Part shown: piece after piece, positions 26,350-62,236 of the stretch
How the letters are laid out: every line of letters starts with the position of its first letter
How positions within the stretch are numbered: position 1 is the stretch's first letter
Origin: Halobacteroidaceae bacterium
GTDB lineage: Bacteria > Bacillota > Halanaerobiia > B1SED10-174
Assembly (NCBI GenBank): GCA_003554585.1
Contig: PWGV01000163.1
Coordinates: 6,071 to 70,070, forward strand
Direction: 5' to 3'
Length of the DNA stretch: 64,000 nucleotides
Made by a program: the position numbers and the translations under genes
The notes under the pieces: generated by a model
Databases searched by the model: none
Told to the model about the DNA's origin: nothing
The model's input: the letters and a program-made list of their open reading frames with translations, nothing else

Positions 26350-26824
26350 AGTAAAAGTGAATTTGAAAGTGAACGGGAAAGAACATTCCCTGGAAGTAGA
26401 AGCTGCGACCAGGTTGCTGGACCTTTTAAGGGATGAACTGGGGTTGATTGGCACCAAGGAAGGTTGTGGCAAGGGGGAATGCGGGACCTGCACGGTAATT
26501 ATGGATGGGAAAACTGTTAATTCCTGCTTGGTTCTTGCTCCCCAGGCAGAGGGCCGGGAAATCACAACCATTGAAGGCCTGGGTTCTCCTGAAGCTCTGC
26601 ATCCCCTGCAGGAAGCTTTTATTACAAAAGGAGCAGTACAATGTGGTTACTGCACTCCCGGAATTCTTTTGTCTGCCTATAATCTGCTGAACAAAAATCC
26701 TCACCCCCCCAGGGAGGAAATTAAGGAAGGAATTTCGGGAAATCTTTGCCGCTGCACGGGCTATGTTAAAATAGTAGAAGCAATTGAATTCTTCAGCGAA
26801 GGGAGGGATGAGCATGGTAAATAA
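26336..26824 (+). CDS. Xanthine-dehydrogenase-family [2Fe-2S] small subunit
   Basis: GCGKGECGTCTV, QCGYCTPG and NLCRCTGY cysteine clusters. Confidence 0.9.
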   Translation: MKMAKVKVNLKVNGKEHSLEVEAATRLLDLLRDELGLIGTKEGCGKGECGTCTVIMDGKTVNSCLVLAPQAEGREITTIEGLGSPEALHPLQEAFITKGAVQCGYCTPGILLSAYNLLNKNPHPPREEIKEGISGNLCRCTGYVKIVEAIEFFSEGRDEHGK

Positions 26825-29123: not shown

Positions 29124-29128
29124 AGAAG

Positions 29129-37565: not shown

Positions 37566-38174
37566 ATGATCGCAGCCGTTCTCCTCGCTGCCGGTGAGGG
37601 ACGCCGGATGAAGAGGCTAAAACAAACCTTACCCTGGGAAAATGAACTTACCCTGGTCCAGGCCAGCCTGGAAAACATCCTGACCTGTAGGGAGATAGAA
37701 GGCCCCATCCGGGTGGTTATTGGAGCCAAAGCAGAGCAGGTTCGGGAAAATTTTAAAAAATATTCTGACCCCCGGCTGGAGATTCGGAGAAACCGGGAAT
37801 ACAAAAAAGGAATGATATCCTCGATAAAAACAGGACTTGCATCGCTACCCGGAGAGGTAAATGGGTTTTTCATAGCTCTTTCCGACCAGCCCCTGATTTC
37901 TTCCGGGACCTATACTGAATTGATAAGAATTTTCCGGGAGGGAGAACATAAAATTATTGTGCCTGTTTACCAGGAAAAAAGAGGGCATCCAGTTTTATTG
38001 TCCTCTGGTTTTCTGGCGGAAATTCTGGAAATGCCGGATAGTCCGGGGGGATTACGTCCCCTGTTAAAAAGGCACCAGGACCAGGTTTTATGGAAGAATG
38101 TAAAAGATCCAGGAGTTACTATCGACCTGGACTATCCCGAGGATTATTTCCATTACAGGAGGGAAGGGAAATGA
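37566..38174 (+). CDS. mocA: MobA-like NTP transferase, MocA-type molybdenum cofactor cytidylyltransferase
   Basis: AAVLLAAGEGRRM N-terminus, ALSDQP and a length of about 200 aa. Precedes yqeB/yqeC. Confidence 0.7.
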   Translation: MIAAVLLAAGEGRRMKRLKQTLPWENELTLVQASLENILTCREIEGPIRVVIGAKAEQVRENFKKYSDPRLEIRRNREYKKGMISSIKTGLASLPGEVNGFFIALSDQPLISSGTYTELIRIFREGEHKIIVPVYQEKRGHPVLLSSGFLAEILEMPDSPGGLRPLLKRHQDQVLWKNVKDPGVTIDLDYPEDYFHYRREGK

Positions 38175-38980
38175 GAAAGGGACCCGTAATCATTAAAGGC
38201 GCTGGAGAGATGGCCTCGGGAACTGCTCATAAGCTCTTTCGAGCTGGTCTGAAGGTGGTAATGACTGAAATTCCCCAGCCCCAGGCTGTTCGCCGGGGAG
38301 TTTCTTTTGCCCAGGCCGTTTTTACCGGGGAACATACAGTTGAAGACGTAACTGCCTGCTGCGTGCAAAAAATCTCGGAAATTATTGAGGTTTTAAATCA
38401 GGGATTTATCCCGGTTCTTCCCCGGCCTCTTACTGCTGAAGAACTGGAGGAATTAAATCCCAGGGCCCTGGTTGATGCTACCCTGGCTAAAGAACAAACT
38501 GATACCTACTGGGGAGAAGCTCCCGTTGTAATTGGGCTGGGGCCTGGATTTCGGGCTCCGGAAGATGTCCATGCGGTAATTGAAACTCAGAGAGGGCATC
38601 ACCTTGGCCGGATATATTTCCAGGGTATTGCTGCACCCAATACCGGAGAACCGGGTGAAATACTGGGTTATACCTGGGAACGGGTTTTAAGATCTCCCGC
38701 AAAAGGCGAATTTGTTGCTTTCCGGGAAATTGGTGATGAGGTTGAAGCAGGAGATGAAATAGGGGTAATTGATAAGCAGGATATGGTCTGTGCAGGGATT
38801 CCAGGAGTCATCCGGGGTTTAATCTATCCGGGTTTAACTGTTGGAAAAGGAACCAAGCTCGGAGATATTGATCCCCGGGGGATCCGGGAGTATTGTTTCA
38901 CAATTTCTGATAAAGCCAGGAACATTGCGGGAGGTGTTCTGGAGGCCTTGCTTTTCCTGGAGGGGAAAAAATATGTTTAA
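38171..38980 (+). CDS. yqeB: YqeB-family selenium-dependent molybdenum hydroxylase accessory protein
   Basis: VIIKGAGEMASGTAHKLFRAGLKVVMTEIPQPQAVRRGVSFAQAVF matches my recollection of the YqeB-family N-terminus. ATGA overlap with mocA. Confidence 0.7.
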   Translation: MRKGPVIIKGAGEMASGTAHKLFRAGLKVVMTEIPQPQAVRRGVSFAQAVFTGEHTVEDVTACCVQKISEIIEVLNQGFIPVLPRPLTAEELEELNPRALVDATLAKEQTDTYWGEAPVVIGLGPGFRAPEDVHAVIETQRGHHLGRIYFQGIAAPNTGEPGEILGYTWERVLRSPAKGEFVAFREIGDEVEAGDEIGVIDKQDMVCAGIPGVIRGLIYPGLTVGKGTKLGDIDPRGIREYCFTISDKARNIAGGVLEALLFLEGKKYV

Positions 38981-39719
38981 ACCCGGTATTGATCCAGTTA
39001 TTTCTCTGATTGGGGCGGGAGGGAAAACCTCAATTTTATATCATTTCGGGGATTGTTCTTCCCGCCTGGGAGAAAAGGTAGTGCTTACCACTACAACCAG
39101 GGTTTTTCCTGTTGAACGGCAGGATGTACCCCTGCTCCTGGAAGAAGACAGGGAGAAAAGAGCCGAAAGGGCAGGAGAACTTTTAAAAACTCATTCCCTG
39201 ATTCAGGTTGGGGCAGGAAGGGTAGGGAAAAAGGTAATTGGAGTTGAACGGGAAACAGTTCAGGACTTCCTGCAGAACGGGGCCGACCGGGTTATTGTTG
39301 AAGCCGATGGAGCCCGGGGTTTGCCTTTGAAATTTCCCGCGGAGCATGAACCCGTTTTACCTTTTCCACCGGGAAGGGTTTTCCTGGTCGTTGGAGCCTG
39401 GGCTCTGGGCCAGCCTTTTTCAGAGAAAATTTTTCACCGGCCGGAGCTTGCCCGGCGTTACCTTAGCTGGAAAGAAGGGCAGCTAATCGAAGGGGAACAC
39501 ATCGCTGATTTACTGCTCCACCCTAAATCATATTTACCGCGCCTGGAAGGGAAAAAAATATCAGTGATTTTAAATGGAGTTCGGGGTATGTGGCAGGAAA
39601 ATGAAGCCCAGAGGATAGGGGCAATTTTGTTCCGCAAAAGCAGGGTAGGAAATATTTACCTCACCAACCTTAAAGACCAACCATTCCTATGGAAATTGCT
39701 AAGAAGAAGGCAGGAATAG
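38973..39719 (+). CDS. yqeC: YqeC-family selenium-dependent hydroxylase accessory protein
   Basis: ISLIGAGGKTSILYHF P-loop-like N-terminus and VIVEADGARGLPLKFPAEHEPV. Overlaps the yqeB stop. Confidence 0.7.
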   Translation: MFKPGIDPVISLIGAGGKTSILYHFGDCSSRLGEKVVLTTTTRVFPVERQDVPLLLEEDREKRAERAGELLKTHSLIQVGAGRVGKKVIGVERETVQDFLQNGADRVIVEADGARGLPLKFPAEHEPVLPFPPGRVFLVVGAWALGQPFSEKIFHRPELARRYLSWKEGQLIEGEHIADLLLHPKSYLPRLEGKKISVILNGVRGMWQENEAQRIGAILFRKSRVGNIYLTNLKDQPFLWKLLRRRQE

Positions 39720-43701: not shown

Positions 43702-44398
43702 AAGCAAGGTCTATGCGAATCAGGGCGCTCCGGCGGGGGTTGGGGAGATACAGCCCTTCCCCGTCGGGGCGGGCGATTTGCCTGGCATGATTGCGGGCCA
43801 TCTGGGGGGAAATACGAAGCTGCTGTGATAAAAATGAAGTGGCTTCTTCCATGTCCTTAACTGGCTGTCCGAAATCAAAAGAGATCAATTCCAGGTGGTA
43901 ATTTAAATCCAGATTTTTCAGGGCTGCTTCTGTTTCCTCGTAAGGCAGGGGAGAAGTAGCCCTTTCCAAACCACTGCCAAAATCTTTTGGGCCCGCCGGG
44001 GCGATTAAGAAAACTTTTCGGCGGGTGTGCTCACAGATTTTTTTTAAACTCTCTTTCCTGCCCATGACCTGAGAACCGGAAAAAGCGGAAATAGTTACAT
44101 CGGCAATAATCCCTTCCGGAAATTCGCCGGGCCAGGAACCGGAGAGGATTTCGATTTTTTCGCAATTCCCGGTTACCTTTTCCAGGTATTTTCGGGGCAG
44201 CGGAGCAGGTTCCAGGTTATAGACCTTTTTTACGTGGCCAAATAGTTCCCGGGAAAAAAGCCCGGGACCTGAACCAATGTCTAAAAGGACATCGTCGGGT
44301 TGCAGGAAGGGTTTAATTTTCTCGATAAAAACACTGGGATAATCCGACTGCTCTCCTGCCTGCAAATACCAGCGCAGGCGATCAATATTCCATCTCAT
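43700..44398 (-). CDS. Class I SAM-dependent methyltransferase
   Basis: Motif I VLLDIGSGPGLF. 4-nt overlap with the upstream NTPase gene. Confidence 0.75.
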   Translation of the reverse strand: MRWNIDRLRWYLQAGEQSDYPSVFIEKIKPFLQPDDVLLDIGSGPGLFSRELFGHVKKVYNLEPAPLPRKYLEKVTGNCEKIEILSGSWPGEFPEGIIADVTISAFSGSQVMGRKESLKKICEHTRRKVFLIAPAGPKDFGSGLERATSPLPYEETEAALKNLDLNYHLELISFDFGQPVKDMEEATSFLSQQLRISPQMARNHARQIARPDGEGLYLPNPRRSALIRIDLA

Positions 44399-44940
44399 CG
44401 GGCCAAAAGCCCCCTTTCACGAAGAAAATTTCCGAGCAGGGATGCGGTTCTCCGCTCCTCGATCCTGTGGATTTCCACTCCAGGGGTAGCCCTGACCCGG
44501 TCCAAAAATGGACTGGACTTTTCCTTGATTACTCCAAGAACCGGCTGGGTTGAACGGAGCCTGGCCAGGACCGCCTGCTGAAACAGAAGGGCTTCTTCCT
44601 CGAAAATTCCCAGCTCGTCCATTATTAACAGGGAACAATTAACCGCCTGCTGGAGGGCCCGGGTGCCTTTCTGATTAAAAGTGCTTAAGACAGGGATCCA
44701 GCGGGAGCAGTTTTTTTTCTGATAGATTACCAGGTCCCGGATGGATCCCTGGAAGGATTTAGTTAGGCAGTATGGTTCCTCCCTGAGGTCAGCCAGCCTA
44801 AAAGCTACTGTTTTCCCGGAAAGAAGCATGCGCTGGACGACAAAACCTCCAACAGGACCCTTAATTTCTGGAATGAAGTCAACTATTAAAGAAGATTTTC
44901 CCCGACGAGGGGGGCCGGTGAGGAAAAAGTTATTGGGCAT
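44395..44940 (-). CDS. THEP1/NTPase_1-like P-loop nucleoside triphosphatase
   Basis: FFLTGPPRRGKSSLI (Walker A), GGFVVQR and LLIMDELGIFE (Walker B). ATG 44940 lies behind a GGAGGA RBS. The longer listed ORF extension is unsupported. Confidence 0.75.
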   Translation of the reverse strand: MPNNFFLTGPPRRGKSSLIVDFIPEIKGPVGGFVVQRMLLSGKTVAFRLADLREEPYCLTKSFQGSIRDLVIYQKKNCSRWIPVLSTFNQKGTRALQQAVNCSLLIMDELGIFEEEALLFQQAVLARLRSTQPVLGVIKEKSSPFLDRVRATPGVEIHRIEERRTASLLGNFLRERGLLAR

Positions 44941-45024
44941 TTGTTCCTCCTGTAAGGTACTAAATTTAAAGCCATTATTGCATACGGGGGATGGAAAGTC
45001 AATATTTATAAGGAGGGGAAGGTA

Positions 45025-46026
45025 ATGAGCGGGATTTACCATAATCTTAAAAAAATGATTGAAGCCGGGAAAGCCGGATTATTTTTTATCGATCTTGACC
45101 AGGAGCCAGGACGGCTGGGCCTTTATGATTCTGGCGGAGACTTTCTCGCTGGAGCTGACTTTGTCCCCAGGGATATAAGGAAAGATGTTATAGATTCCAG
45201 CAAACCTGGCATTCGAAAAAGCTCGGGAGGCAGGATTTATGGAGAGCTAGTGGCCCCGGTCCCCGTCCTTGTAATCCTGGGAGGGGGACATATAGCTAAA
45301 CCCCTTGCAGAAATGGGAAAACAAATTGGGATGAAAACCTGGGTAGTCGACGACCGGAAAGAATTTGCCTCCCCGGAGCGCTTCCCCGGTGTAAATAAAT
45401 TAATTGCCGGAGAATACAGGGAGTTTTTCCGGAAATTCCAGCCGGGCCTGGAACACTTTCTGGTAATAGTGACCCGCGGTCACAGGCACGACCTGAGTTG
45501 TGCCCTTGAGGCTTTGCAAACCAGGGCCTCCTATATCGGGATGATAGGTAGTAAGCGTAAGGTTAAAGAAGTATTTCAAAAATTAAAAGAAGAAGGTTTT
45601 ACAGAAGAAGATATTAGAAGGATTTATGCTCCTATTGGTCTTGATATTGGTGCAGAAAGCCCCGGGGAAATAGCTGTTAGTATTGTCGCTGAGATTATTA
45701 AAGTAAAAAAGGGTAAAGGGGAGCCAGGTAACTGGCAGGAAATCCTTCCTGCCCTGCAGAAGGGCAGCATGCTGGCGACAATAGTCTCTGCCAGCGGATC
45801 TACTCCTCGGGGAGCGGGCGCCCGCCTTCTTTTGCAGCCTGATGGTTCTACAGTAGGAACTGTAGGCGGAGGGCTGGGTGAAGGAAAGGTAATTCAAAAA
45901 GCCCGAGAAATCCAGGGCTCGGGAAGCAAAGTTTTGCTGGATTTTGAACTGGATCAGGATATCGCGGAAGAAGAAGGTATGATTTGTGGAGGTTCTTTTT
46001 CCGTTTTTATTCAACCTGTTGAATAG
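45025..46026 (+). CDS. xdhC: XdhC/CoxI-family molybdenum hydroxylase maturation factor with atypical domain order
   Basis: Rossmann segment VLVILGGGHIAKPLAEMGKQIGMKTWVVDDR...VIVTRGHRHD...IGMIGSKRK. A canonical XdhC_CoxI-type segment sits at the C-terminus (ATIVSASGSTPRGAGARLLL...GTVGGG...GMICGGSFSVFIQP). Confidence 0.8.
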   Translation: MSGIYHNLKKMIEAGKAGLFFIDLDQEPGRLGLYDSGGDFLAGADFVPRDIRKDVIDSSKPGIRKSSGGRIYGELVAPVPVLVILGGGHIAKPLAEMGKQIGMKTWVVDDRKEFASPERFPGVNKLIAGEYREFFRKFQPGLEHFLVIVTRGHRHDLSCALEALQTRASYIGMIGSKRKVKEVFQKLKEEGFTEEDIRRIYAPIGLDIGAESPGEIAVSIVAEIIKVKKGKGEPGNWQEILPALQKGSMLATIVSASGSTPRGAGARLLLQPDGSTVGTVGGGLGEGKVIQKAREIQGSGSKVLLDFELDQDIAEEEGMICGGSFSVFIQPVE

Positions 46027-52692: not shown

Positions 52693-53847
52693 TTATTTGT
52701 TTTGTTCTTTTAGTTGTTGCGCAAATGAAACTGCGAGGTTAGTATTAAATTTAAATTCAGAAAAAGCTCTATCCAGGGCCGTAAGGGTCCTGAAAATTCT
52801 CCCTGAATCGGAATTGTAACCCATATGGCCCAAACGCCAGATTAAACCATCCAGAGGGCCCAGGCTGCCTCCGATTTGAACCCGGTACTGTTCCCAGAGG
52901 TGTTGCCGGAAGGAGTTATCTGAGATTCCGCCTGGGATAAAAAAGGCGCTTACGGTGCTGGCGAAATTGCTCAGCGGATAGAGCTCCAAGCCGTTAGTTA
53001 ATAGACTCCCCCGGACTGCTGCTGCAAGCTGTTCGTGGTTTTCAAGGACCCAGGGCCAGTTTTCAAGGGCAATTTCACAGGCCACACCAAGGGCCGCGAT
53101 ATCTGGGGCTGGCTGGGTGTAGGGGAAAGTTCCCTTTTTAAGCCAGGTATCCTGCCACACTTTTAAATTTAAGTAGAACCCCCGAAAGGGTTCTTTTCTT
53201 TTTTCGATTTTTTCCCAGGCTCGCGGGCTCAGGGAGAGAAAGGATAATCCTGGAGGAGCAGAGAGGGCTTTCTGGCTGCCTCCCAAAATTACGTCCATCT
53301 TGTTTTGATCAGCATTAACCCGGTCTCCACCAATTGAAGCAACTGCATCAACAATGGAAATTATTCCTTTTTCGGAAAGATAAGGGCAGATCTCTTCCAG
53401 TGGATTGAGAATCCCCGTTGGGGTTTCACAGTGAACCATTGTTGCCAGATTAATCCCGGGGTTTTGTCCTAAGATTTCATCGAGGTCATCCACAGTTATG
53501 GGTTTTCTCCAATCTTTTTCCACGAGGATTGGTTTTCCCCCATAACTTTGCACAAAATCTGCTAATCCTTTTCCGAAAAGACCGTTGGCCAGGCAGAGAA
53601 CCTTTTCGCCAGGTTCAACCAGGCTGGCAATGGAAGCTTCAAGTCCCAGCATTCCCTCGCCGGCCAGGATAAGGACGGGGTTTTGGGTGCCCATAATCCT
53701 TCCCAATTTCGCAGCTGTTTCGCTGTATATTTCTGTAAACCTGGAGTCAAAATCAGGGTTCAACCGGCAACCGGCCATCGCCTCCTGGACCCGGGGATCT
53801 GTTGCAGTGGGTCCAGGGGTAAAAATTAAATCTTCCTGGTAATGCAT
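52693..53847 (-). CDS. Class V aminotransferase (AGXT / serine-pyruvate / PucG-like family)
   Basis: LIFTPGPT N-terminus and the PLP lysine context GGSQKALSAPPGLS. ATG 53847 lies behind an AAAGGAGGA RBS, 13 nt after the mobB-like stop. Confidence 0.85.
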   Translation of the reverse strand: MHYQEDLIFTPGPTATDPRVQEAMAGCRLNPDFDSRFTEIYSETAAKLGRIMGTQNPVLILAGEGMLGLEASIASLVEPGEKVLCLANGLFGKGLADFVQSYGGKPILVEKDWRKPITVDDLDEILGQNPGINLATMVHCETPTGILNPLEEICPYLSEKGIISIVDAVASIGGDRVNADQNKMDVILGGSQKALSAPPGLSFLSLSPRAWEKIEKRKEPFRGFYLNLKVWQDTWLKKGTFPYTQPAPDIAALGVACEIALENWPWVLENHEQLAAAVRGSLLTNGLELYPLSNFASTVSAFFIPGGISDNSFRQHLWEQYRVQIGGSLGPLDGLIWRLGHMGYNSDSGRIFRTLTALDRAFSEFKFNTNLAVSFAQQLKEQNK

Positions 53848-53860
53848 GGTATTTCCTCCT

Positions 53861-54622
53861 TTAGGAATCGGGGGATATTTCAATTTTTATTTCCTGGTGG
53901 GGTTTATAACCCTCCAGGGTTTGCAGATAACCTTTAATAATTCCGGCCAGGGCTTCCTGGACAAATGGAACCATGGGAAGTTCCTTTCCGCCAATACTTA
54001 CTTTCACCCGGCCATCCTGGATTACACACTCGCTGGCCTGGCCCTTATCCCTCAGGATATCCGCGAGGAGTTCACGGCAGGACCTGCCGCAGGCCTCACA
54101 GCACTCGGGAGGGAAGTCAGGAAGTAGAGGAGGTGTTTTTTCCAGGATCAGGGCGGCCAGTTCCCGAAACTTTTTCCGGGCATCGAAAAGCGGAGGGTAA
54201 TCGAAAGGGAGCTTGTTTTCACCCTGGGAAGATATCAGGCCTGAAATTGCAACAGTTCGGGGGTTTTTTAATTCTTCCACATCACCGGTGTTTCTGGCGC
54301 AGAGGATCTGGGGAACATTTAGTTCCCGGTCCCCCTCGATAATTACAATGTCGTGGTGATAAAAAGATAGGATTTCCTGCAGGGGTAGCTGGTAGGGGAA
54401 AATAATATTGGTCTCAAAAAGCCCCCGGCCGGTAACAAGTTCGGCCCCGGCTTCCCTATGACGGTGAGTATTTGACCCGGGTGTCTCCATGGAGAATTTC
54501 TCATAATGAATGTCCTTAATGGAACCCACGCTTAAATTGCGGTGTTTGAATTCCCGGATTAAATTTTCCACCGTTGTTGTTTTTCCAGAACCGCTTATTC
54601 CTATTACTGAAATAACTTTCAT
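53861..54622 (-). CDS. MobB-like P-loop NTPase with Cys-rich C-terminal extension
   Basis: [22 protein letters not shown] (MobB-type Walker A) and DIVIIEGD. There is an extra ~90-aa C-terminus containing PPECCEACGRSC. TAATG overlap with ecfT. Confidence 0.65.
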   Translation of the reverse strand: MKVISVIGISGSGKTTTVENLIREFKHRNLSVGSIKDIHYEKFSMETPGSNTHRHREAGAELVTGRGLFETNIIFPYQLPLQEILSFYHHDIVIIEGDRELNVPQILCARNTGDVEELKNPRTVAISGLISSQGENKLPFDYPPLFDARKKFRELAALILEKTPPLLPDFPPECCEACGRSCRELLADILRDKGQASECVIQDGRVKVSIGGKELPMVPFVQEALAGIIKGYLQTLEGYKPHQEIKIEISPDS

Positions 54623-55362
54623 TAAATCAACCCTTTCAGGTGAAGTGTAACCATGATTAAGCCTCCGGTAAGGCTGAGGATAATTGTGGTGTAATCTCCT
54701 TTCTTGAGCTTAAGAGAATGGAGAAAAGTCCTCCGGGGATAGGACCGGAAGGCCCGGGCTTCCATGGCCAGGGCAATTTGTTTGGAACGGAGAATGGCCA
54801 TGGTTACAAGGGGTAAAAAAAGGCTTTTATAAATCTTCAACTGCTGGGACCAGGGCATTCTTTTGAGGTCAACTCCTCTCAGCTGGAGGGCGGTAAAGAC
54901 ATCATTTGCTTCTTCCCGCAAAAGGGGCAGAAACCTGATGCCCAGGGATACCATGTAGGCAAGTTCATAGGGTAAAGACCAGGCTACAAGGCCCTGGACA
55001 AAACGGCCGGGAGGTGAACTTGCCAGAATTAACCCACAGCAGAGGATAATGAAAAGCCGGAGAACAAGACTTGTTCCCTGGAGAATCCCCTCCAGGGTTA
55101 CAAGGGAGTACTCGCCTACTGTAATTAAGGTGGTGGTCCCGGGGTAGAAAACTGCCTGGATCAAGACAAGCCCCCCCAGGATTATCACCAAACGGCGCAT
55201 TCTCCTGGCAATTTTCAGCGGGTTGCAGTTAAATAAGGGGAGGAGAACCAGGGCCAGGAAAAGGATTGGAACCAGGTAAATGGGGTGGTTAAAAATAACG
55301 GCAAGGGTCGCCAGAACTCCACTTAAAACAAATTTACTTCGGGGGTCTAGTTCTTTCAGCAT
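54622..55362 (-). CDS. ecfT: ECF transporter transmembrane T component (CbiQ/EcfT family)
   Basis: Multi-TM protein carrying the two Ala-Arg-Gly-type coupling helices (ALQLRGVDL and LAMEARAFRS). Confidence 0.85.
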   Translation of the reverse strand: MLKELDPRSKFVLSGVLATLAVIFNHPIYLVPILFLALVLLPLFNCNPLKIARRMRRLVIILGGLVLIQAVFYPGTTTLITVGEYSLVTLEGILQGTSLVLRLFIILCCGLILASSPPGRFVQGLVAWSLPYELAYMVSLGIRFLPLLREEANDVFTALQLRGVDLKRMPWSQQLKIYKSLFLPLVTMAILRSKQIALAMEARAFRSYPRRTFLHSLKLKKGDYTTIILSLTGGLIMVTLHLKGLI

Positions 55363-56033
55363 TGGACCACCCCTTCCATGAGCTGGCCTTTTTTTAATTC
55401 TCGGACGCAGCTGGCCAGTTTTCCGGCAAACTGGTGGTCGTGGCTGATAAGAAGTATTCCCCGGTTTTTTTGTAGCAGTTTATGGAGGTAAAAATAGAGT
55501 TCTTCTTTGCGCCGGGGATCCAGGCCTGTTGTTGGTTCATCGAGGATGAAAAAGGGTGGGTCTAAAGCCATAATTGCTGCTAAAGCAAGGCGCTGTCTTT
55601 CCCCCTGGCTCAGGGTGAAGGGGAATTTTTCCCGCAGGCGGTCAAGGTCAAAAAATTTAAGAAGTTCGGTTACTTTTTCCCGGTTTTCCTCGGAATTTTT
55701 ATTTCGAAACTGAAGGGCAAATCCCACTTCTTCTTCAACACTGGAACAGAATAACTGGCGGTTGGGGTTTTGAAACAAATAACCCACACGCTCCCCGATT
55801 TTTGCCAGGGACAGACTTTCGAGTTTTTGCCCGTCAACGGAAATCTGTCCCTTTTCGGGCTTGATAATCCCAATCAGGATTTTGCTCAGGGTTGTTTTTC
55901 CCGACCCGTTGGCTCCCAGGAGAGCAAGGCATTCTCCGCTGTGCAGTTCAAGGTTAATATTTTCCAGCAGAAAAGGCTGATCTTTTTGATACCGGAAATA
56001 AAGGTTTTTAGCGATTAAAGCCATTGCATTCAA
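55356..56033 (-). CDS. ECF/ABC transporter ATP-binding protein (A' component)
   Basis: GANGSGKTT, LSQGERQRLALA and [10 protein letters not shown]. Confidence 0.9.
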   Translation of the reverse strand: MNAMALIAKNLYFRYQKDQPFLLENINLELHSGECLALLGANGSGKTTLSKILIGIIKPEKGQISVDGQKLESLSLAKIGERVGYLFQNPNRQLFCSSVEEEVGFALQFRNKNSEENREKVTELLKFFDLDRLREKFPFTLSQGERQRLALAAIMALDPPFFILDEPTTGLDPRRKEELYFYLHKLLQKNRGILLISHDHQFAGKLASCVRELKKGQLMEGVVQC

Positions 56034-56707
56034 CTCCAGCGGGCCTGGCCGTTTTCTAGGTGTAACAAACGGTCGGAGGCTGCGAGATTTTCCAGTTGAT
56101 GGTCAACCAGGATTAAACTTTTTCCTGCTTTTTTAAGGGGGAAGATGATTTCCTGGACCCTTCGCCGTCCTTCTTGATCCAACTGGGACAGGGCTTCATC
56201 CAGAATCAGGGTATGGGGTCTCAAAGCAAGAATTGACCCCAGGGCCAGGAGCTGCTTTTCACCCCCGGAAAGCTGGGCAGGATTGGTATAACGGTACTGG
56301 GTCATTCCTGTTAGTTCAAGAACTTCTTTTATTCTTGTTTCAATTTCTTCCGGAGGCAGGCACAGATTTTCAGGACCAAAGGCAATTTCTTCTTCCACTG
56401 TCGTGCAGAACAACTGGGTTTCCGGATCCTGGAAAACCATCCCTATCTTCTGGGACAGCCGGGGAAGAGGAATAGAAGAGAGGGGCTGTTCATCTACCAG
56501 GATTTTCCCCATGATATTTCCGGGAAGGTGCCGGGGAATAATCCCGCTTAAACAGTAGCACAGTGTACTCTTGCCGCAACCGCTGGGACCTGTAATTCCA
56601 ATTACTTCTCCCGGGTTTAGTTTAAAGTTTAGGTCTGTCCAGAGGGGATAATTATCATCCGGGAAGGAAAAGGTAAAATTTTTAACGACAAGCCTGGTTC
56701 CGTTCAT
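56030..56707 (-). CDS. ECF/ABC transporter ATP-binding protein (A component)
   Basis: GPSGCGKST, LSGGEKQLLALG and ILDEALSQLD. 4-nt overlaps with both flanking genes. Confidence 0.9.
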   Translation of the reverse strand: MNGTRLVVKNFTFSFPDDNYPLWTDLNFKLNPGEVIGITGPSGCGKSTLCYCLSGIIPRHLPGNIMGKILVDEQPLSSIPLPRLSQKIGMVFQDPETQLFCTTVEEEIAFGPENLCLPPEEIETRIKEVLELTGMTQYRYTNPAQLSGGEKQLLALGSILALRPHTLILDEALSQLDQEGRRRVQEIIFPLKKAGKSLILVDHQLENLAASDRLLHLENGQARWS

Positions 56708-57228
56708 TCTACCGTCACCCGGGTCAGATACTTACACCAGCGCATGGCAAACTCATCCTGGAGGACAACTGTCATGAAGGGACCATCCCCGCCTTCTTCC
56801 CTCGTTTCAAGCCATTCCCCTTCCCGGGCGTAGACCAGGTAAATATTATTTTCTTCCAGGACTTCCTCGGAACTGTAGGCGATGGTATAACCATCTGCAG
56901 CCCGGGCAATTACCCGGTCAGCTTCTCCGAGGGTTTCGGGGAAGACATGGTTTAGGAATTCATTAAGAGGAACTCCGGTGAAAAAGATCTCGGTATCCTC
57001 TGCTGTGCTGCTGCGCCTGATGGTCCTGATGTTTGTTGCTTTTAAATCGAGGATTTCATCAAGGGTAATATCAACTGCTTCACCGGCAAAACTTATCCGC
57101 AAAATTCTTTCCCTTAATAACTCTCTTTCTTCCTCTACACCGCCGATATTGGCAATGGCCAGAGAAATAATAATGATTGCAAACAGGCCCATAATCCAGT
57201 AAATTTGCTTTGGTTTCAATTCTTTCAT
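56704..57228 (-). CDS. N-terminally membrane-anchored protein with one SUOX-fold (oxidoreductase molybdopterin-binding-like) domain
   Basis: Single TM helix IYWIMGLFAIIIISLAIANIGG. Then FTGVPLNEFLNHV...ARAADGYTIAY...GPFMTVVLQDEFAMRWCKYLTRVTV, which follows the G-x-L...DGY...P-x-R-L-V-V-P...VK-x-L-x-I pattern of PF00174-type domains. Confidence 0.55.
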   Translation of the reverse strand: MKELKPKQIYWIMGLFAIIIISLAIANIGGVEEERELLRERILRISFAGEAVDITLDEILDLKATNIRTIRRSSTAEDTEIFFTGVPLNEFLNHVFPETLGEADRVIARAADGYTIAYSSEEVLEENNIYLVYAREGEWLETREEGGDGPFMTVVLQDEFAMRWCKYLTRVTVE

Positions 57229-57231
57229 TTG

Positions 57232-59103
57232 CTAATTACCTCCTTGCAGGTGAAAAAAGGGGACAATTAGGTCCTGGTAATAAAAACGGCCGTGGTTGCC
57301 CCCTTCAGGGGTTTTTCTCATTCCATGATCCGGCATAATTAAAATATCTCCCGGCCAGAAAGAGGAAATTTCCTGGAGATATCCGTCCAAAACAGAGAGA
57401 GTCTCCATGGTCCTTTGGTCGAAAGGTCCGTATTCGTGGCCGGCAATATCCAGGGATTTGAAGTGGACAAACAAAAGGTCGTAATCTTTCTTAACCATAT
57501 CCCGGGCAGTGATGATTATTTCTTCGTCACCGCGGGGGTGGAGAACTGGAGCAATCTCCGAATAAAGGGGATTTATTGCTCCCTGCAGGCTAGCGACCTT
57601 TAAACCCTGTTCTGCGGAGAGATCAAGGATGTTTTGAACCAGGGGTTCCCGGTCTCTCCGCTGGTGAATTCCGGTCCCGGGAGGAAGTTCCCCGGTTAAA
57701 AGGGAAGCAGTATTTACATTGGTAATCGGGGGGTAGGCTACCCGGGCCATTTTTGTTTCCTCCCGGGAGCCGAGGAAGGGAATTAATTCGTTTTCCCGGG
57801 CGTACAGGAACTGGTCAAAACCAAATCCATCAACCAGGATTAATAGAATTCTTCGGTTATCAGCCATAAGGGTATTCATTTTGGGTACAATGTCAGCGAT
57901 AGAAATATCCGGAGGCTCAAACATTACACCCGCCAGGCTACCCAGAATTTCCTGTCCTTCTTTATCAACCAGGGTAAAGGAATTATTCTCAAAGGCAATA
58001 TGCTGTCCCTCGGGCTCGTAGAGCGCTTCCTCTCCTTTCAGGTTTACGGCGAGGAAAGGGCCGGTATATTCTGCAAAATATTCCTCGAGTTTAATTAAAG
58101 GCTCTGCCTGGTTTTGAGCCAGGAATTCTCCTGGAGTCATGTTTAATAGATTTTTCCTGGGAGTAACGATGCCCAGGGGAGCAGTATCTCCCAGGACAAT
58201 AATCTCCCCAATTCCCTGCAGAATATTTTCTTTCCCGGCCCCACCCAGGTTCCAGGTTCTGCTTTCCTCCTGGATTTCCAGGAAAATTTCATCCAAAGCA
58301 GTGGAGGAAAAATCTATGTTCTCGCCATTTTCTCCCCGCAGGTATACCTTCTGCAGACCAAGTGGTTCGGCTTTTTCCAGAACTTCCTCCAGGGAAATTC
58401 GCTCCTCTGAATAAGAGGAGATGGTGTAGGGGTTATCTACATCGCCTTTAATTTCAAGCGGGGAAACTGCATTTTTATCACTGCCTGTATCCGAACACCC
58501 GGTTAAAAATAGGGAGAAAATTAGCAGGGCGAAGAGCCCCGGTTTCAAAACGTTTTTGAAGAGGGGAGTTTTTTCCAACTGGCGCAGTAATTGAAAACAG
58601 ATAATTCCCCCGCCTCCCCCGGAAAAGGCTCCCAGGAAAAGAGACAGGAGGAGAGGTATAAGGGGCAGGCGGAAAAAAACCACATTAACCAGGAATGTTC
58701 CGCTCAGGTTAGCAAGGGTTCCGGCCATAAAGCAGTGAAAAATTGTGGCTTTCCGGGGTTGCCCAAAAAGAAAAAGCCCAAAATCTACCATTAAGCCGGG
58801 GAGAATATAGGTCATAAGGCTTAAAACCCCGTGGGAACCCACAACTCCCAATGCCATTACAAGGATGGCCTGGATTAAACAGGTTATTGTTGCAGCTCCA
58901 TTTTTATTGACCAGAAACCGGGCCATGACAATCCACATCATATAAAGGCCACCGGCCAGGGCTCCTCCGGGAATAAAAAGTGGAGCAGTGATCATATGCA
59001 CAAGGGGAGTGATTATGGGTTTTGTTGCTATACCCAAAACAGCCATCATGGCCATCAGGGTCAGGTCGAACATGGAAAACCGCAAAAGGTACCGGTGCAG
59101 CAT
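57232..59103 (-). CDS. Fusion protein: ECF S-component-like 6-TM domain, internal lipobox-like TM, linker domain, and C-terminal alkaline-phosphatase-superfamily nucleotide pyrophosphatase/phosphodiesterase domain
   Basis: Residues 1-185 are hydrophobic (LMAMMAVLGIATKPIITP...). Then LFALLIFSLFLTGCSDTG. The C-terminus has ILLILVDGFGFD, YPPITNVNTASLLTGELPPGTGIH, FVHFKSLDIAGHEYGP, IMPDHGM and GNHG, which are NPP/PF01663-type metal and nucleophile motifs. Confidence 0.7.
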   Translation of the reverse strand: MLHRYLLRFSMFDLTLMAMMAVLGIATKPIITPLVHMITAPLFIPGGALAGGLYMMWIVMARFLVNKNGAATITCLIQAILVMALGVVGSHGVLSLMTYILPGLMVDFGLFLFGQPRKATIFHCFMAGTLANLSGTFLVNVVFFRLPLIPLLLSLFLGAFSGGGGGIICFQLLRQLEKTPLFKNVLKPGLFALLIFSLFLTGCSDTGSDKNAVSPLEIKGDVDNPYTISSYSEERISLEEVLEKAEPLGLQKVYLRGENGENIDFSSTALDEIFLEIQEESRTWNLGGAGKENILQGIGEIIVLGDTAPLGIVTPRKNLLNMTPGEFLAQNQAEPLIKLEEYFAEYTGPFLAVNLKGEEALYEPEGQHIAFENNSFTLVDKEGQEILGSLAGVMFEPPDISIADIVPKMNTLMADNRRILLILVDGFGFDQFLYARENELIPFLGSREETKMARVAYPPITNVNTASLLTGELPPGTGIHQRRDREPLVQNILDLSAEQGLKVASLQGAINPLYSEIAPVLHPRGDEEIIITARDMVKKDYDLLFVHFKSLDIAGHEYGPFDQRTMETLSVLDGYLQEISSFWPGDILIMPDHGMRKTPEGGNHGRFYYQDLIVPFFHLQGGN

Positions 59104-59106
59104 TAT

Positions 59107-60159
59107 TTATACCTCCCCATCAAGAGCCTTGATCAATAGAATTCCTCGGATGTGGAAGTTGCGAGGGAGGTGGGAAAAATGGACTCGAAAACTCCCGTCA
59201 TCAAGCTGTTTTATTATTCCCTGCTGGATGTCCTCTAAAGAAATTTCAACTGAATAACCATCAACAGCCTCAATTTTAAGGCCATTGCTCCAATCCAGGC
59301 CGGCTTTTTCAACAAACTTATCCAGGGCGATTCCTTCTTCCCCATTGATTTCTGCTGGGGGAAGATCCTTAATCCAGTTGGACCAGAAAACAATTTTTTC
59401 TCTACCCAGTTGTATTGAACTCAAACCCTTTACCTGGCGGCCCGCGTGCAGTTTCTCTCCGGAAAAAGTTGGGACTCCATTATCCAGGGGGTCTATATAA
59501 GTGTCGGGGATGTCTGACAAACGTTCGGTTTTTGTGTGGCCGTCTGCCGCAGAAAAGAAGATGAAATCACCAATTGGGTTGAGTTCTTCAACGATAGAAG
59601 AGATCAAAACCCGGGAATCAATAACTCCCATTTTTTCGGCCAGGGAAGAGAAAAGGTAAACAGCATCCACCTCTATTTCAAACAGGCCTCCTTCCAGTTC
59701 CGCACGGACGCAATTGCGAACCCAGTACATCATTTCTTCTCCGGGGATTACAACCCGGAGCGGGTATTCATTTTCAGGAAGTTTTTGCCCATCATCCCGG
59801 AAAATGGCCAGGAGGATATTCCGGTTTCGGAATATTTCGGGGGGAATCTGGACAACGTAGCCGTCCTCAGCAATGAAACGGAGCCCTTCCAGGCCTTCCT
59901 GGGAGTAACCTTTATTTTCGAGGATGGTCTGCAAAAGAACTCCCTGGTAGGTCCGCTGCTGTTCTTCGACCACGATAGTTACTTCTTTTTGCTCCAGGCT
60001 TTTGAGAAAAACAGGAGTTAAACTGAGCTTTTCTCCGTCGGGGAGAATTATTTCGAAAACCCATTCCACCCTGCCGCATGGTCCTGCTGCAGCCTGGGGT
60101 AATAGGGTTGTTGTTAGAAGTAGAAAAGCTAACATAATAAAAAGCGCAAGTTTTTTCAT
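59107..60159 (-). CDS. Secreted protein with two to three tandem SUOX-fold (molybdopterin-binding-like) domains
   Basis: Sec-type signal MKKLALFIMLAFLLLTTTLLPQAAAG with no twin arginine. Repeats: YQGVLLQTILENKGY...FIAEDGYVVQI...PLRVVIPGEEMMYWVRNCVRAEL; SAADGH; and GIALDKFVEKAGL...IEAVDGYSVEI. Confidence 0.6.
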   Translation of the reverse strand: MKKLALFIMLAFLLLTTTLLPQAAAGPCGRVEWVFEIILPDGEKLSLTPVFLKSLEQKEVTIVVEEQQRTYQGVLLQTILENKGYSQEGLEGLRFIAEDGYVVQIPPEIFRNRNILLAIFRDDGQKLPENEYPLRVVIPGEEMMYWVRNCVRAELEGGLFEIEVDAVYLFSSLAEKMGVIDSRVLISSIVEELNPIGDFIFFSAADGHTKTERLSDIPDTYIDPLDNGVPTFSGEKLHAGRQVKGLSSIQLGREKIVFWSNWIKDLPPAEINGEEGIALDKFVEKAGLDWSNGLKIEAVDGYSVEISLEDIQQGIIKQLDDGSFRVHFSHLPRNFHIRGILLIKALDGEV

Positions 60160-60233: not shown

Positions 60234-60263
60234 GAAAATAAAAAAACCTCCGGAAAGGGAGGT
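60234..60263 (-). terminator. Intrinsic terminator acting as the riboswitch expression platform
   Basis: The minus strand reads ACCTCC-ctttcc-GGAGGT followed by TTTTTTTATTTT. Lies about 75 nt upstream of the first operon gene. Confidence 0.7.
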
Positions 60264-60283
60264 CAGGTACAGACTAAGGTACC

Positions 60284-60377
60284 ACTCCTTTCCACACTGG
60301 GAGGCACAGCCGTTTCCAGCAGTGCCCTATCGGCTTGAGGCCAGCCCAACAAGGGGTAAGGCGTTCAAGCTCGGAGT
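60284..60377 (-). promoter_or_regulatory. Moco (or Tuco) riboswitch-like aptamer (cis-regulatory RNA)
   Basis: Minus strand: ACUCCGAGC...GCC-uua-CCC-cuuguu-GGG-cu-GGCCUC...GGCAC-u-GCUG-GAAA-CGGC-u-GUGCCUCCC-agugu-GGAAAGGAGU. P1 pairs ACUCC with GGAGU. The CCGAGC, GCCUC, GCCUCCC and GGAAAGGAG blocks match my recollection of the Moco RNA motif. Not verified with a covariance model. Confidence 0.6.
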
Positions 60378-60487
60378 CAATTTTCTGTTCCTTTTCTTAA
60401 TTCGTGAATACCCTGGAAACCCCTTTATTTTTTGCAGGAATTTTTATAATAAGAGGAGAAATTGTTCAAAAATGTACAAGACGAGGG

Positions 60488-62236
60488 GTGGTTTTCCTGG
60501 GAAGAAAAATTATTTTTTATTTTTTCGTTATCTTTCTTTTTCTTTATTGCCCCACTGTGGATGCTTTTGATATCCCAGAAGTAAAAATTGAAGATGGAGT
60601 TTTACGGGCTGGCTCGGGGTGGAGAATTGATCTTGAAGGACTGCGGATAGGATTTTTAAGTGGGAGCCCGGAGGAGATTGGAATCCAGCATGGCCTTTTA
60701 ATGACCGAAAACCCGGAAGAACTCAGGCAAAAAATGCTGGATAAGCTACCTTTTGCTCATCCAGAGACCCTTGGAGAGAGGTTCGCGGGGTTTTTTCTCA
60801 ATACCTATGCCCGTTTTCAGTTTTACCCTGCTTTTTTAAGGCATACACCAGAAGAATATATTCGGGAAATGCGGGGCTTTGTCCTGGGGGCCTCCCGGGG
60901 GGAAGAAGACGACATTTACGATGTTATGATGGGTAATGCTGCTCAAGATCTTGAAATCGCTGCCTGTTCAGCATTCGCTGCCTGGGGGAATGCAACCGAA
61001 GACGGGGAAATTTACGTGGGCAGGAACCTTGACCACGGGGGAATGCTGGATCTGGCCAGCTACCAGTACCTGGCAATTTATGACCCCGAAAGGGGATACC
61101 GTTTTGCCGTCCATAATTACCCGGCTTTTGTGGGGACAATGAGCGGAATGAATGAAAAAGGGCTGGTTATTAGCTCAAATTATTCAATGGCCCGCAGGGA
61201 GGAAACGACAATTAATGGACTCCCCTACATGTTTATGTTACGCAATGTTCTCCAGAACGCAGCTACTATCGATGAAGCCCTGGAAATAATCAAAAATACC
61301 CCTCGAACAATTGGGCTGACCCTGCTCCTGGCTGACGGGAAAACGCCAGAAGCTGTTGTAGTGGAAATAACTGCTGATAGGATGCAGGTAAGAACTGGAG
61401 AGGATTATATCTTCGCTGCCAACCGCTATTTACATCCCGAGATGAAAGACTATCAGGCCGGGGGCTGGCTGGCTTCAGCCCTGCGGGAGAAGCGCTTTCA
61501 GGAGTTGATTACCGATGAATTCTGGGGTCAGATTGATGTCTCCGTCACCCGTGATATCATGCGGGATCGATTGCCTCCTGAAGGTTTTAAACAGGAAAAC
61601 TTCGGGCAGGGTATCAACCATGAAGTGAATATGGCTTCCATGGCCATGGTTCCCTCCCGGGGGGAATTCTGGGTGGGAGCAGTAGATGATTCTGAAATTC
61701 CTTTTGCGGCTGATGCCCACTTTGTTGGGATTGATGTCCGGAAAATCTGGGAAACCGGGGAACCACCCCGGGAACCGATTGGTATTCTGGAGGCAACACC
61801 CCGGGAGGGGTACGAGGGTTACTGGTTTAAGGCTCGGGAAGCCAACCTTCTTTTAGGCCAGGGAAAAAGAGAAAAAGCCCTTGAACTCCTGGAAGAAGTT
61901 TTATCTGTTTACCCCCGGGCAGAAATGCCCCTGCTTCTGGCCGGGAGAGCCCTGATTAGAGAAGGGGAAATAGATAAAGGGATTGAATACCTGGAGCGTT
62001 TTGCAACCCTTGAGTATAACAGCGAACCGTTCCATCAAATGGAAGGTTATTTCTGGCTGGCTGTGGTTTACGATCAGGTTGGAGAGAGGGAAAAGGCAGT
62101 TGAGTATTACCGAAAAAGCTTGCAGGTCCAGATTGAAGATATGCCCCCGGCCGAAGGCGGTTACCGTTATTTCGCCGAAAAGGGAATTGAAACTCCGCTA
62201 AAGTTAACTCCCGAGGGGAGGGTATATATTCCGTGA
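60488..62236 (+). CDS. Exported C45-family (acyl-CoA:6-APA acyltransferase-like / Ntn) hydrolase with C-terminal TPR repeats
   Basis: Signal-like N-terminus VVFLGRKIIFYFFVIFLFLYCPTVDA from GTG 60488. ACSAFAAWGNATEDGEIYVGRNLD is the Ntn Cys context. TPR-like C-terminus (ALELLEEVLSVYP..., AVEYYRKSLQ). The start is uncertain. Confidence 0.7.
   Translation: MVFLGRKIIFYFFVIFLFLYCPTVDAFDIPEVKIEDGVLRAGSGWRIDLEGLRIGFLSGSPEEIGIQHGLLMTENPEELRQKMLDKLPFAHPETLGERFAGFFLNTYARFQFYPAFLRHTPEEYIREMRGFVLGASRGEEDDIYDVMMGNAAQDLEIAACSAFAAWGNATEDGEIYVGRNLDHGGMLDLASYQYLAIYDPERGYRFAVHNYPAFVGTMSGMNEKGLVISSNYSMARREETTINGLPYMFMLRNVLQNAATIDEALEIIKNTPRTIGLTLLLADGKTPEAVVVEITADRMQVRTGEDYIFAANRYLHPEMKDYQAGGWLASALREKRFQELITDEFWGQIDVSVTRDIMRDRLPPEGFKQENFGQGINHEVNMASMAMVPSRGEFWVGAVDDSEIPFAADAHFVGIDVRKIWETGEPPREPIGILEATPREGYEGYWFKAREANLLLGQGKREKALELLEEVLSVYPRAEMPLLLAGRALIREGEIDKGIEYLERFATLEYNSEPFHQMEGYFWLAVVYDQVGEREKAVEYYRKSLQVQIEDMPPAEGGYRYFAEKGIETPLKLTPEGRVYIP

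Follow-up and report, generated by a model that had tools for sequence, protein, structure and literature searches.

A predicted ECF importer under a tungsten-cofactor-type riboswitch, with its S component fused to an extracytoplasmic phosphodiesterase, in a Halobacteroidaceae bacterium

Group I importers of the energy-coupling factor (ECF) type, such as YkoEDC for thiamine or hydroxymethylpyrimidine (HMP), CbiMNQO and NikMNQO, comprise an S component encoded with an EcfT and two EcfA proteins of its own, and CbiMNQO and NikMNQO have extra extracytoplasmic components, CbiN and NikK/NikL (the YkoE structure paper is cited in PMC13119186). An operon of the same make-up, which likewise encodes helpers, lies in the stretch of 64,000 nucleotides (64 kb) analysed here from a Halobacteroidaceae bacterium (GenBank assembly GCA_003554585.1, contig PWGV01000163.1, positions 6,071 to 70,070 of the forward strand); the whole stretch is referred to as the window. 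The second gene of this operon encodes a protein of 623 amino acids (aa), in which an S component is joined to a nucleotide pyrophosphatase/phosphodiesterase (NPP). Unlike in the group I importers, a complete NPP ectoenzyme and PruR-like domains are the helpers in place of CbiN or NikK, one helper is covalently joined to the S component, the regulator belongs to the tungsten cofactor (Tuco) type of riboswitch, and the substrate class would be new for ECF transporters.

The NPP domain shares its fold, bimetal site, Thr nucleophile and extracellular location with the NPP/ENPP enzymes (2GSN; ENPP1/3), whereas its core has about 210 instead of about 380 residues (TM-score about 0.4 on the target), a family-specific linker of 200 residues precedes it, and it is tethered or fused to a transporter. 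In the salvage of nicotinamide adenine dinucleotide (NAD) by NadN/e(P4) and PnuC of Haemophilus, a surface pyrophosphatase or phosphatase trims the charged dinucleotide before uptake and the core is rebuilt inside. The system proposed here would follow the same logic, with different enzyme families, transporter class and cofactor, and with the enzyme in the transporter polypeptide. OpuA and GlnPQ are ATP-binding cassette (ABC) importers whose substrate-binding domain is fused to the membrane domain, and FbcH of Bradyrhizobium (cytochrome b/c1) is a membrane polyprotein cut at an internal signal peptide. The fusion in the window resembles these in that an extracytoplasmic partner is attached through a signal-anchor helix, with an internal split if its lipobox cysteine, Cys203, is used, but the partner is an enzyme instead of a binding protein, the transporter is of ECF type, and the signal inside the chain belongs to the lipoprotein class handled by signal peptidase II, a case without precedent to our knowledge.

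PruR is a small secreted protein of the sulfite oxidase (SUOX) fold that has no Mo-ligand cysteine and sandwiches a pterin between a Tyr and a Trp (PMC11194511). The ectodomains encoded beside the fusion, named Oxm here, are like PruR of Agrobacterium and relatives (7KOS, 7KOU, 7KOM, 7KP2; PMC11194511) in being small, secreted and cysteine-less, with this fold and a conserved Tyr and Trp that probably correspond to the stacking pair. PruR itself binds monapterin or neopterin and signals to a diguanylate cyclase/phosphodiesterase (PMC11194511), whereas Oxm domains adjoin a transporter and occur singly, in tandem and on S-layer-anchored giants. The regulon of the molybdenum cofactor (Moco) and Tuco riboswitches includes moa, mod, tup, WOR1 and 'Fe ABC-type' transporters (PMC2408646, PMC11725836). 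The window operon shares with it an aptamer lacking the P3 stem, followed by a terminator-like hairpin, in front of transporter genes, but no ECF-type transporter is among the regulon genes in these two papers. The known transporters of the regulon carry oxyanions only; bacteria may be able to take up Mo/W cofactor or pterin precursors instead of making them.

The fusion gene and its origin

The N-terminal part of the 623-aa protein matched the S-component family PF09819 (ABC_cobalt) at aa 13-132 with 47.2 bits (Pfam cut-off 25.2), covering positions 2-119 of the 121 in the profile. Hydropathy placed six helices within aa 11-173 and a seventh at aa 187-201, and Lys and Arg were confined to the N-terminus and the odd-numbered loops 3, 5 and 7. 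By these simple rules (hydropathy and positive-inside), both ends of the S domain are predicted to lie in the cytoplasm and the seventh transmembrane helix (TM7) to run from inside to outside. This is the layout of an S component, i.e., about 180 aa, six helices and two cytoplasmic ends; moreover, the EcfA, EcfA' and EcfT genes lie directly downstream, and stand-alone S proteins of related loci (about 180-205 aa) are 50-60% identical to the domain. The sequence-only reading of this DNA had proposed an N-terminal S component followed by an extracytoplasmic phosphodiesterase. The family match and the operon context bear out the former, and the topology given by hydropathy and the Lys/Arg distribution puts the NPP domain outside the cytoplasm. 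An AlphaFold model of the full-length protein, built from eight sequences, was poor (pLDDT 61, predicted local distance difference test).

The catalytic domain matched PF01663 (Phosphodiest) at aa 532-600 with E=3.7e-11 and 43.7 bits (Pfam cut-off 23); it is complete, and the NPP motifs quoted in the sequence-only reading are all present. The catalytic and metal-binding set consists of seven residues, D425, the nucleophile T461, D552, H556, D592, H593 and H604. Among 76 members of the family, D425, D552, H593 and H604 occur in all 76, D592 in 75 and H556 in 74, and the nucleophile position holds Thr in 64, Ser in 11 and Ala in one, the two-metal site and a Thr/Ser nucleophile thus being 97-100% conserved. 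The AlphaFold model of aa 203-623, built from 76 sequences, reached a pLDDT of 95.3 and a predicted TM-score of 0.92, and its best Foldseek matches were Xanthomonas NPP, ENPP1/3 and the phosphodiesterase domain of PorX (probability 1.0). The family profile also matched Xanthomonas NPP 2GSN (E=6.4e-11), with the Thr aligned to its nucleophile. Conservation and model point to a putative active hydrolase outside the cell. The linker ectodomain, which is conserved in unfused proteins, was modelled with a pLDDT above 90 over most of its length. A homology of the linker to the ectoprotein Oxm174 was considered and is not claimed, the hhalign probability being 8% for a 57-column match around a 'DG' motif, which is not significant.

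The lipobox L-T-G-C203 at the end of TM7 (FLTGC203S) fits the pattern [LVI][ASTVI][GAS]C. Ahead of it lie a basic segment (R174, K178, K183, K187) and a hydrophobic core of about 13 residues (GLFALLIFSLF). In position, the segment departs from an ordinary lipoprotein signal, as it comes after 185 residues and six transmembrane helices, and the signal is N-terminal only in the unfused orthologues. Every one of the 11 members of the two lipobox-bearing clades, which fused independently, has Cys203, at an overall identity of only 33-55%, and in the actinobacterial one of these clades the segment before TM7 varies wildly in length. Because the cysteine is kept despite such variable surroundings, the lipobox is probably still in use, and the earlier description of it as a fossil is doubtful. 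Continued use would mean lipidation, and probably cleavage, at Cys203, yielding a 7-TM S component and a lipoprotein NPP. If this is true, a conserved lipobox after six transmembrane helices would be a new way to obtain two membrane proteins from one gene. A conserved internal start for a separate NPP product was rejected, the TTG at Leu186 of the window being TTA in a relative of 83% identity.

The fusion itself is real. At least ten metagenome runs from salt lakes and soda lakes (2012-2025) contain near-identical sequence, contigs from four independent runs of different years cover the fusion without indels, and one metagenome contig spans the whole 1.9 kb of the gene with a single substitution. 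The 83%-identical gene, in another metagenome-assembled genome (MAG), has the same length and keeps the frame; synonymous and amino-acid changes between the two genes number 45:6 in the S domain and 53:32 in the NPP domain, which indicates that both halves are under purifying selection. The 623-aa architecture recurs at 83% and 53% identity in other assemblies, in the same operon. A frameshift or assembly artefact is excluded because four independent runs carry the fusion without indels, and the intact frame of the 83% relative and the operon of the 53% relative agree with this. The earlier reading, which saw one fused gene and named two genes joined by a frameshift artefact as its refutation, was right on this point.

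The origin of the fusion was traced in a scan of relatives with one genome per species, which gave 338 carrier genomes; 80 loci were examined, and all counts out of 80 refer to them. The S and NPP genes are adjacent and separate in 55/80 loci, with gaps of -28 to +52 nucleotides (nt), and fused in only three. In the unfused state, an S gene of 180-205 aa is followed by a gene for an anchored NPP protein of about 500 aa, with the same linker (P-L-x-I-x-G-D-V) and NPP domain. Of 57 unfused NPP proteins, about 22 have a lipoprotein signal at the N-terminus and the others an uncleaved signal anchor. The search for an S gene next to a lipoprotein NPP gene, suggested by the sequence-only reading, was thus successful, and the derivation of TM7 and its lipobox from the signal peptide of a separate lipoprotein is supported by the arrangement of these orthologues. 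An exhaustive search of 1.84 billion representative proteins gave three fused clusters among the best 150 matches. A word-indexed search had returned eight clusters, all fused, as if fusion were the rule; the genome scan and the exhaustive search corrected this.

In neighbour-joining trees of either domain, computed without bootstrap, the fused proteins fell into three separate clades, each beside unfused relatives, namely the clade of the window, the actinobacterial clade and the single protein P0022, which is located in the same operon type. The trees and counts indicate that the S-NPP fusion is a rare derived state with at least three independent origins. Loss of the stop codon between the neighbours is enough to create it, and it is topologically possible because the S component ends in the cytoplasm. 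S is also fused to the other ectoprotein, Oxm174, via a signal-anchor helix without cysteine, in P0023, P0047, P0062, P0073 and L080 (9995-11131). Repeated fusion of S to two different ectoproteins argues for a physical complex of S and ectoprotein, and it is good indirect evidence that they work in contact. These fusions contrast with the prevailing view that ECF transporters function without partners outside the cytoplasm. The coupling of substrate processing to the transporter entry site, as suggested earlier, is strengthened by the repeated independent fusions to either ectoprotein and stays a proposal. The layout had also been called unusual for ECF systems; this applies to the covalent fusion, which is rare, but not to the pairing of S with an ecto-NPP, which within this family is a conserved rule in hundreds of genomes.

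Regulation, ectoproteins and a possible pyranopterin cargo

The Moco/Tuco aptamer RF01055 is the sole Rfam match within the window and lies directly upstream of the operon. Its alignment spans the whole model (1-135) apart from the P3 hairpin, which is deleted, and the P3 stem was missing in 10/10 aligned aptamers, those of the window and nine related loci. A covariance model built from these ten detected a Tuco-type aptamer upstream of the operon and on its strand in 53/80 loci (one or more each). P3-less Moco aptamers have been linked to the tungsten cofactor by Regulski et al. (PMC2408646). A 2024 study of E. limosum used the P3-less form as the signature of W-dependent switches, and its aptamer-then-terminator operons, fetABC1 and focA, were up under W limitation (PMC11725836). 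In the window, a hairpin starts 5 nt past the aptamer, with a 7-bp stem GACCTCC...GGAGGTT and then TTTTTATTTT. The operon is predicted from these elements to be turned off by a tungsten-cofactor-type riboswitch. The sequence-only reading missed the riboswitch, the PruR-like ectoproteins and MobB, though these define what the system concerns. At another locus (L018, 3441-15959), two tandem P3-less riboswitches lead an operon of about 12 kb that comprises the complete ECF system together with a RIO/APH-like kinase, a FecCD/ABC/Peripla_BP_2 importer, a TiaS/methanogenesis-marker-11-like protein and an FMN_bind lipoprotein. Transporters of the 'Fe ABC-type' that E. limosum has under Tuco riboswitches may be of the same kind, with a cargo that is possibly not iron.

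The fusion gene lies in a compact minus-strand operon whose genes overlap or are 3 nt apart, in the order secreted PruR-like protein (Oxm350), S-NPP, anchored PruR-like protein (Oxm174), EcfA, EcfA', EcfT and MobB/FeS. The partners were found in 71 (EcfA), 70 (EcfA'), 69 (EcfT), 69 (Oxm174), 62 (NPP), 57 (Oxm350) and 52 (MobB) of the 80 loci, and the operon family is carried by hundreds of anaerobe genomes of Clostridia, Halanaerobiales, Actinomycetota, Dehalococcoidia, Sumerlaeota and Thermotogota.

The two Oxm proteins match PF00174 above the Pfam cut-off, and their similarity to PruR and SUOX is weak but consistent. The Oxm174 profile hit PruR 7KOM (E=3.5e-4), SorA (0.01) and PruR 7KOS (0.015), and that of Oxm350 hit the Moco domain of the sulfite dehydrogenase SorA (E=4e-6) and the PruR homologue 7KP2 (E=0.012). 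It is the second half of the SorA Moco domain that is matched; the N-terminal half of this catalytic domain is absent from Oxm domains, and there is no Cys at the Mo-ligand position. They keep the Tyr (D-G-Y) and a Trp whose equivalence rests on the SorA alignment; in Oxm174, Y114 is nearly invariant and W164 invariant. Since the Oxm proteins have Sec or anchor signals instead of signals for twin-arginine translocation (Tat), that of Oxm350 being of Sec type without a twin-arginine motif, they would be exported unfolded and without cofactor. At the locus L056 (4081-7971), a protein of 1296 aa carries, besides an Oxidored_molyb-like domain, three SLH domains and repeats of the Big_7 and MG2 kinds. 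It seems to be a member of the ligand-capture set that is anchored in the cell wall, recalling the haem relays of Gram-positive bacteria.

From the Oxm matches to PruR and SorA, the conserved Tyr and Trp, the non-Tat signals and the redox partners encoded at other loci, we infer a pterin as the substrate class. Those partners are FMN_bind lipoproteins (33/80 loci) and NapH-like iron-sulfur proteins (11/80), whose co-occurrence is easier to explain with a redox-active organic ligand than with an oxyanion. PF09819 includes the thiamine/HMP binder YkoE and with it ligands of the aminopyrimidine type. A connection with the Mo/W cofactor is suggested by the riboswitch in the window and in 53/80 loci, the lack of P3 in all ten aligned aptamers, the terminator-like hairpin, MobB as the conserved last gene and the MoeA, DUF364 and FecCD/Peripla_BP_2 genes of some riboswitch-led operons.

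In the mechanism that we propose, the 623-aa protein would be a read-through fusion of the S component of a dedicated group-I-type ECF importer with its membrane-anchored ecto-phosphodiesterase, in which the N-terminal lipoprotein signal peptide of the partner persists as helix seven and takes the remainder of the polypeptide across the membrane. Expression would set in when the cofactor is scarce. The PruR-like ectodomains would capture an external pyranopterin, which may be the Mo/W cofactor, its guanine or cytosine dinucleotide form, a breakdown product or a precursor. The NPP domain, held beside the S-component pocket, would strip off a nucleotide or phosphate, and the S domain would import the trimmed pterin, driven by EcfAA'T. 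Inside, MobB/FeS would handle the pterin, with help from a small RIO/APH-like kinase in many genomes. Lipidation and cutting of the precursor at Cys203, if they occur, would yield a lipoprotein NPP and an S component with seven helices, 1:1 and side by side. The fusion would place the enzyme right at the S-component mouth. We give this account as a whole, an operon for a cofactor-repressed ECF importer of a pyranopterin compound in which operon partners are fused, an even chance.

Several points weigh against it. The similarity to PruR is low (E=3.5e-4 to 0.14), and the pterin-contacting Asn of PruR is replaced by Asp in Oxm domains. The S-domain profile found no match in the PDB by sequence, and the Foldseek lists were filled with NPP structures; the linker has no recognisable relatives by sequence in Pfam or the PDB. 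The NPP gene was not found in 18/80 loci, some of them cut by contig ends, and the partner appears to be dispensable in some lineages. In a 75%-identical Halobacteroidaceae MAG (L004, 642-1877), the fused gene shows decay beyond aa 235, with in-frame stops, aa 266-486 deleted and catalytic residues mutated; its NPP part is a pseudogene, and the S domain, TM7 and lipobox are intact. The fused clade of P0022 has no cysteine in TM7, so that a single-chain form evidently functions as well, and we know of no demonstrated case of a lipobox processed after six transmembrane helices. The regulation is no proof of the cargo, since genes for cofactor-using enzymes and 'iron' transporters are likewise found behind Tuco riboswitches. 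Mo/W cofactor in its free form is chemically unstable, and we are not aware of any bacterium that takes it up.

The operon family is apparently undescribed. Its accessory parts and its regulator are new for an ECF importer, and the cargo class is probably new too. No ECF transporter tied to the Mo/W cofactor was found in the literature searched, an earlier mention in the founding comparative-genomics paper on ECF transporters (Rodionov 2009) being possible, and no S component fused to an ectoenzyme was found there. That this is the first dedicated bacterial system for uptake or salvage of the pyranopterin (Mo/W) cofactor, with an S-NPP 'polyprotein' split at an internal lipobox in the lineage of the window, is a tentative claim that we consider somewhat improbable. 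In this version, a relay of PruR-like surface domains would pick up cofactor that other cells release, and MobB/FeS would rebuild the imported core. If true, cofactor sharing would be added to the ecology of tungsten-dependent anaerobes. The system is carried by several cultured strains, among them Maledivibacter halophilus M1, Paramaledivibacter caminithermalis DSM 15212, [Clostridium] ultunense DSM 10521 and Wukongibacter sp. M2B1, in which the question is directly testable.

Competing explanations

The main rival explanation is import of tungstate or molybdate, in which the bimetal site of the NPP domain captures the oxyanion and the SUOX-like domains are further oxyanion or metal modules. 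ModABC and TupABC, the transporters known to be under Moco/Tuco riboswitches, import oxyanions, and the operon has the same riboswitch link. MobB and MoeA belong to the metal-insertion stage of the pathway. Tungstate, molybdate and vanadate are well known as active-site ligands and inhibitors of enzymes of the alkaline phosphatase superfamily, whose bimetal site binds tetrahedral oxyanions. On the other hand, we know of no ECF S component that carries an anion, the family of the S domain is of vitamin type, and the documented ligand of the closest solved relatives of Oxm is a pterin. The nucleophile and all metal ligands are fully retained, as a working hydrolase needs. Many operons that are otherwise complete have no NPP partner. 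The FMN_bind and NapH partners and the FecCD-type importer point to an organic ligand. An oxyanion cargo is thus unlikely in our judgement.

Transport could also run outward, a pterin cofactor, perhaps a dinucleotide, being delivered to Sec-exported SUOX-like apoproteins, with the NPP domain as a transferase or trimming enzyme and FMN_bind and NapH proteins feeding electrons. This would parallel RibU-EetB-FmnA of Listeria, where flavin adenine dinucleotide (FAD) is trafficked outward in an ECF-dependent manner for extracytosolic flavinylation (PMC9973259). Apart from this precedent for cofactor export, the SUOX fold and non-Tat signals of the Oxm domains and the FMN_bind and NapH-like genes at 33 and 11 of the 80 loci suit such a scheme. 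The Oxm proteins, however, look like binders rather than enzymes, because neither the cysteine that binds Mo nor the N-terminal half of the catalytic Moco domain is present in them. The predicted shut-off at plentiful cofactor fits supply better than consumption, and the window has no FMN_bind or NapH gene. We regard outward transport as quite improbable.

The chance that the cargo is another phosphorylated vitamin of the thiamine/HMP type, dephosphorylated outside, imported and re-phosphorylated, with a secondary riboswitch link, seems slender. Membership of PF09819, the general logic of dephosphorylation before uptake and the small RIO/APH-like kinase in 39/80 loci would agree with it, and thiamine kinase belongs to the APH family. 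Against this, Rfam detected RF01055 alone, and no thiamine pyrophosphate (TPP), flavin mononucleotide (FMN) or other vitamin riboswitch, in the window and nine related loci. The Tuco-type aptamer recurs in 53/80 loci, MobB is conserved and the ectodomains are PruR-like. The last explanation, that the fusion arose by faulty assembly or sequencing or is a functionless accident of this one genome, can point to the decayed NPP half in L004 and has practically no chance in view of the four independent indel-free runs, the same architecture at 83% and 53% identity, the purifying selection indicated for both halves and the two further independent fused clades.

Operon members and neighbouring genes

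The features of the operon are listed in Table 1 in the direction of transcription.

Table 1. Positions of the operon features within the 64-kb window
Feature	Position	Strand	Basis
Moco/Tuco riboswitch aptamer RF01055, P3-less variant	60269..60388	(-)	Rfam 62.1 bits (gathering score 36), E=1.7e-12
Terminator-like hairpin and U-tract, candidate OFF-type platform	60245..60264	(-)	pattern scan; consensus match only
Oxm350, secreted 350-aa protein, repeated PruR/sulfite-oxidase-like (Oxidored_molyb) domains	59107..60159	(-)	PF00174 E=6.3e-7
S-NPP fusion open reading frame	57232..59103	(-)	ATG start, intact, 623 aa
S-component domain of the fusion, aa 1-185, six transmembrane helices	58549..59103	(-)	PF09819 E=2.9e-12; topology; relatives
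TM7 and lipobox, aa 186-203, KPGLFALLIFSLFLTGC	58495..58548	(-)	retained lipoprotein signal peptide of the NPP partner; Cys203 invariance; unfused partners start alike
Linker ectodomain, aa 204-410, two beta-rich subdomains, starts P-L-x-I-x-G-D-V	57874..58494	(-)	AlphaFold, conservation
NPP catalytic domain, aa 411-623	57235..57873	(-)	PF01663; 2GSN profile match; Foldseek; residues
Oxm174, 174-aa membrane-anchored PruR-like ectoprotein	56704..57228	(-)	PF00174 E=5.5e-6
EcfA ATPase	56030..56707	(-)	PF00005 E=1e-28; best NCBIfam ECF_ATPase_1, below cut-off
EcfA' ATPase	55356..56033	(-)	PF00005 E=3e-33; best NCBIfam ECF_ATPase_1, ECF_ATPase_2, below cut-offs
EcfT transmembrane component	54622..55362	(-)	PF02361 CbiQ E=8.8e-27
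MobB-like P-loop protein, Cys-rich C-terminal domain (CCxxCxxxC...C)	53861..54622	(-)	PF03205 E=1.7e-22
Class V aminotransferase	52693..53883	(-)	PF00266; overlaps MobB gene by 23 nt

The MobB-like protein also matched TIGR00176 (mobB) with 85.6 bits against a cut-off of 76.2, and the cysteines of its tail are conserved. A match to a group II intron domain (RF02001) lies just 3' of the MobB gene at L022 (10753-10876). The aminotransferase gene is a lineage-specific addition to the operon, present in 2/80 loci, and its nearest NCBIfam models, the pyridoxamine-pyruvate and 2-aminoethylphosphonate transaminases, scored far below their cut-offs. A phosphonate link through a PhnA-like NPP and a PhnW-like aminotransferase was rejected on this distribution and these scores; furthermore, the PhnA matches of the NPP domain were no better than its NPP matches.

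The operons of other loci often add the FMN_bind lipoprotein and NapH-like genes counted above, and at some loci MoeA, DUF364 and a FecCD/Peripla_BP_2 importer are within the same riboswitch-led operon; at L018, all of these and the small kinase come after one tandem riboswitch. The small kinase is a protein-kinase-fold protein of 255 aa, e.g., L008 8701-9471, usually encoded after MobB; it has weak similarity to RIO1, Bud32 and APH and no PDB match. Homologues of the kinase, FMN_bind and NapH-like genes were not found in the window.

Just beyond the riboswitch, a divergent gene starts (60404-62236, plus strand), which encodes a protein of 610 aa with TPR repeats and a domain like acyl-CoA:6-aminopenicillanic acid acyltransferase or choloylglycine hydrolase. 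An NTPase_1 (THEP1-like) gene is found at 44395-45042 (minus strand), and its homologues stand beside the ECF operon in eight related loci. The host organism clearly uses pterin cofactors. Two molybdenum hydroxylases of the xanthine dehydrogenase family, with FAD, 2Fe-2S and MoCoBD subunits, are encoded at 25468-31885, 37566-38174 and 38841-39719 of the window. They are accompanied by a MobA-like nucleotidyltransferase and YqeC, lie among purine/pyrimidine-degradation genes, and as a set recall the clusters of selenium-dependent molybdenum hydroxylases.

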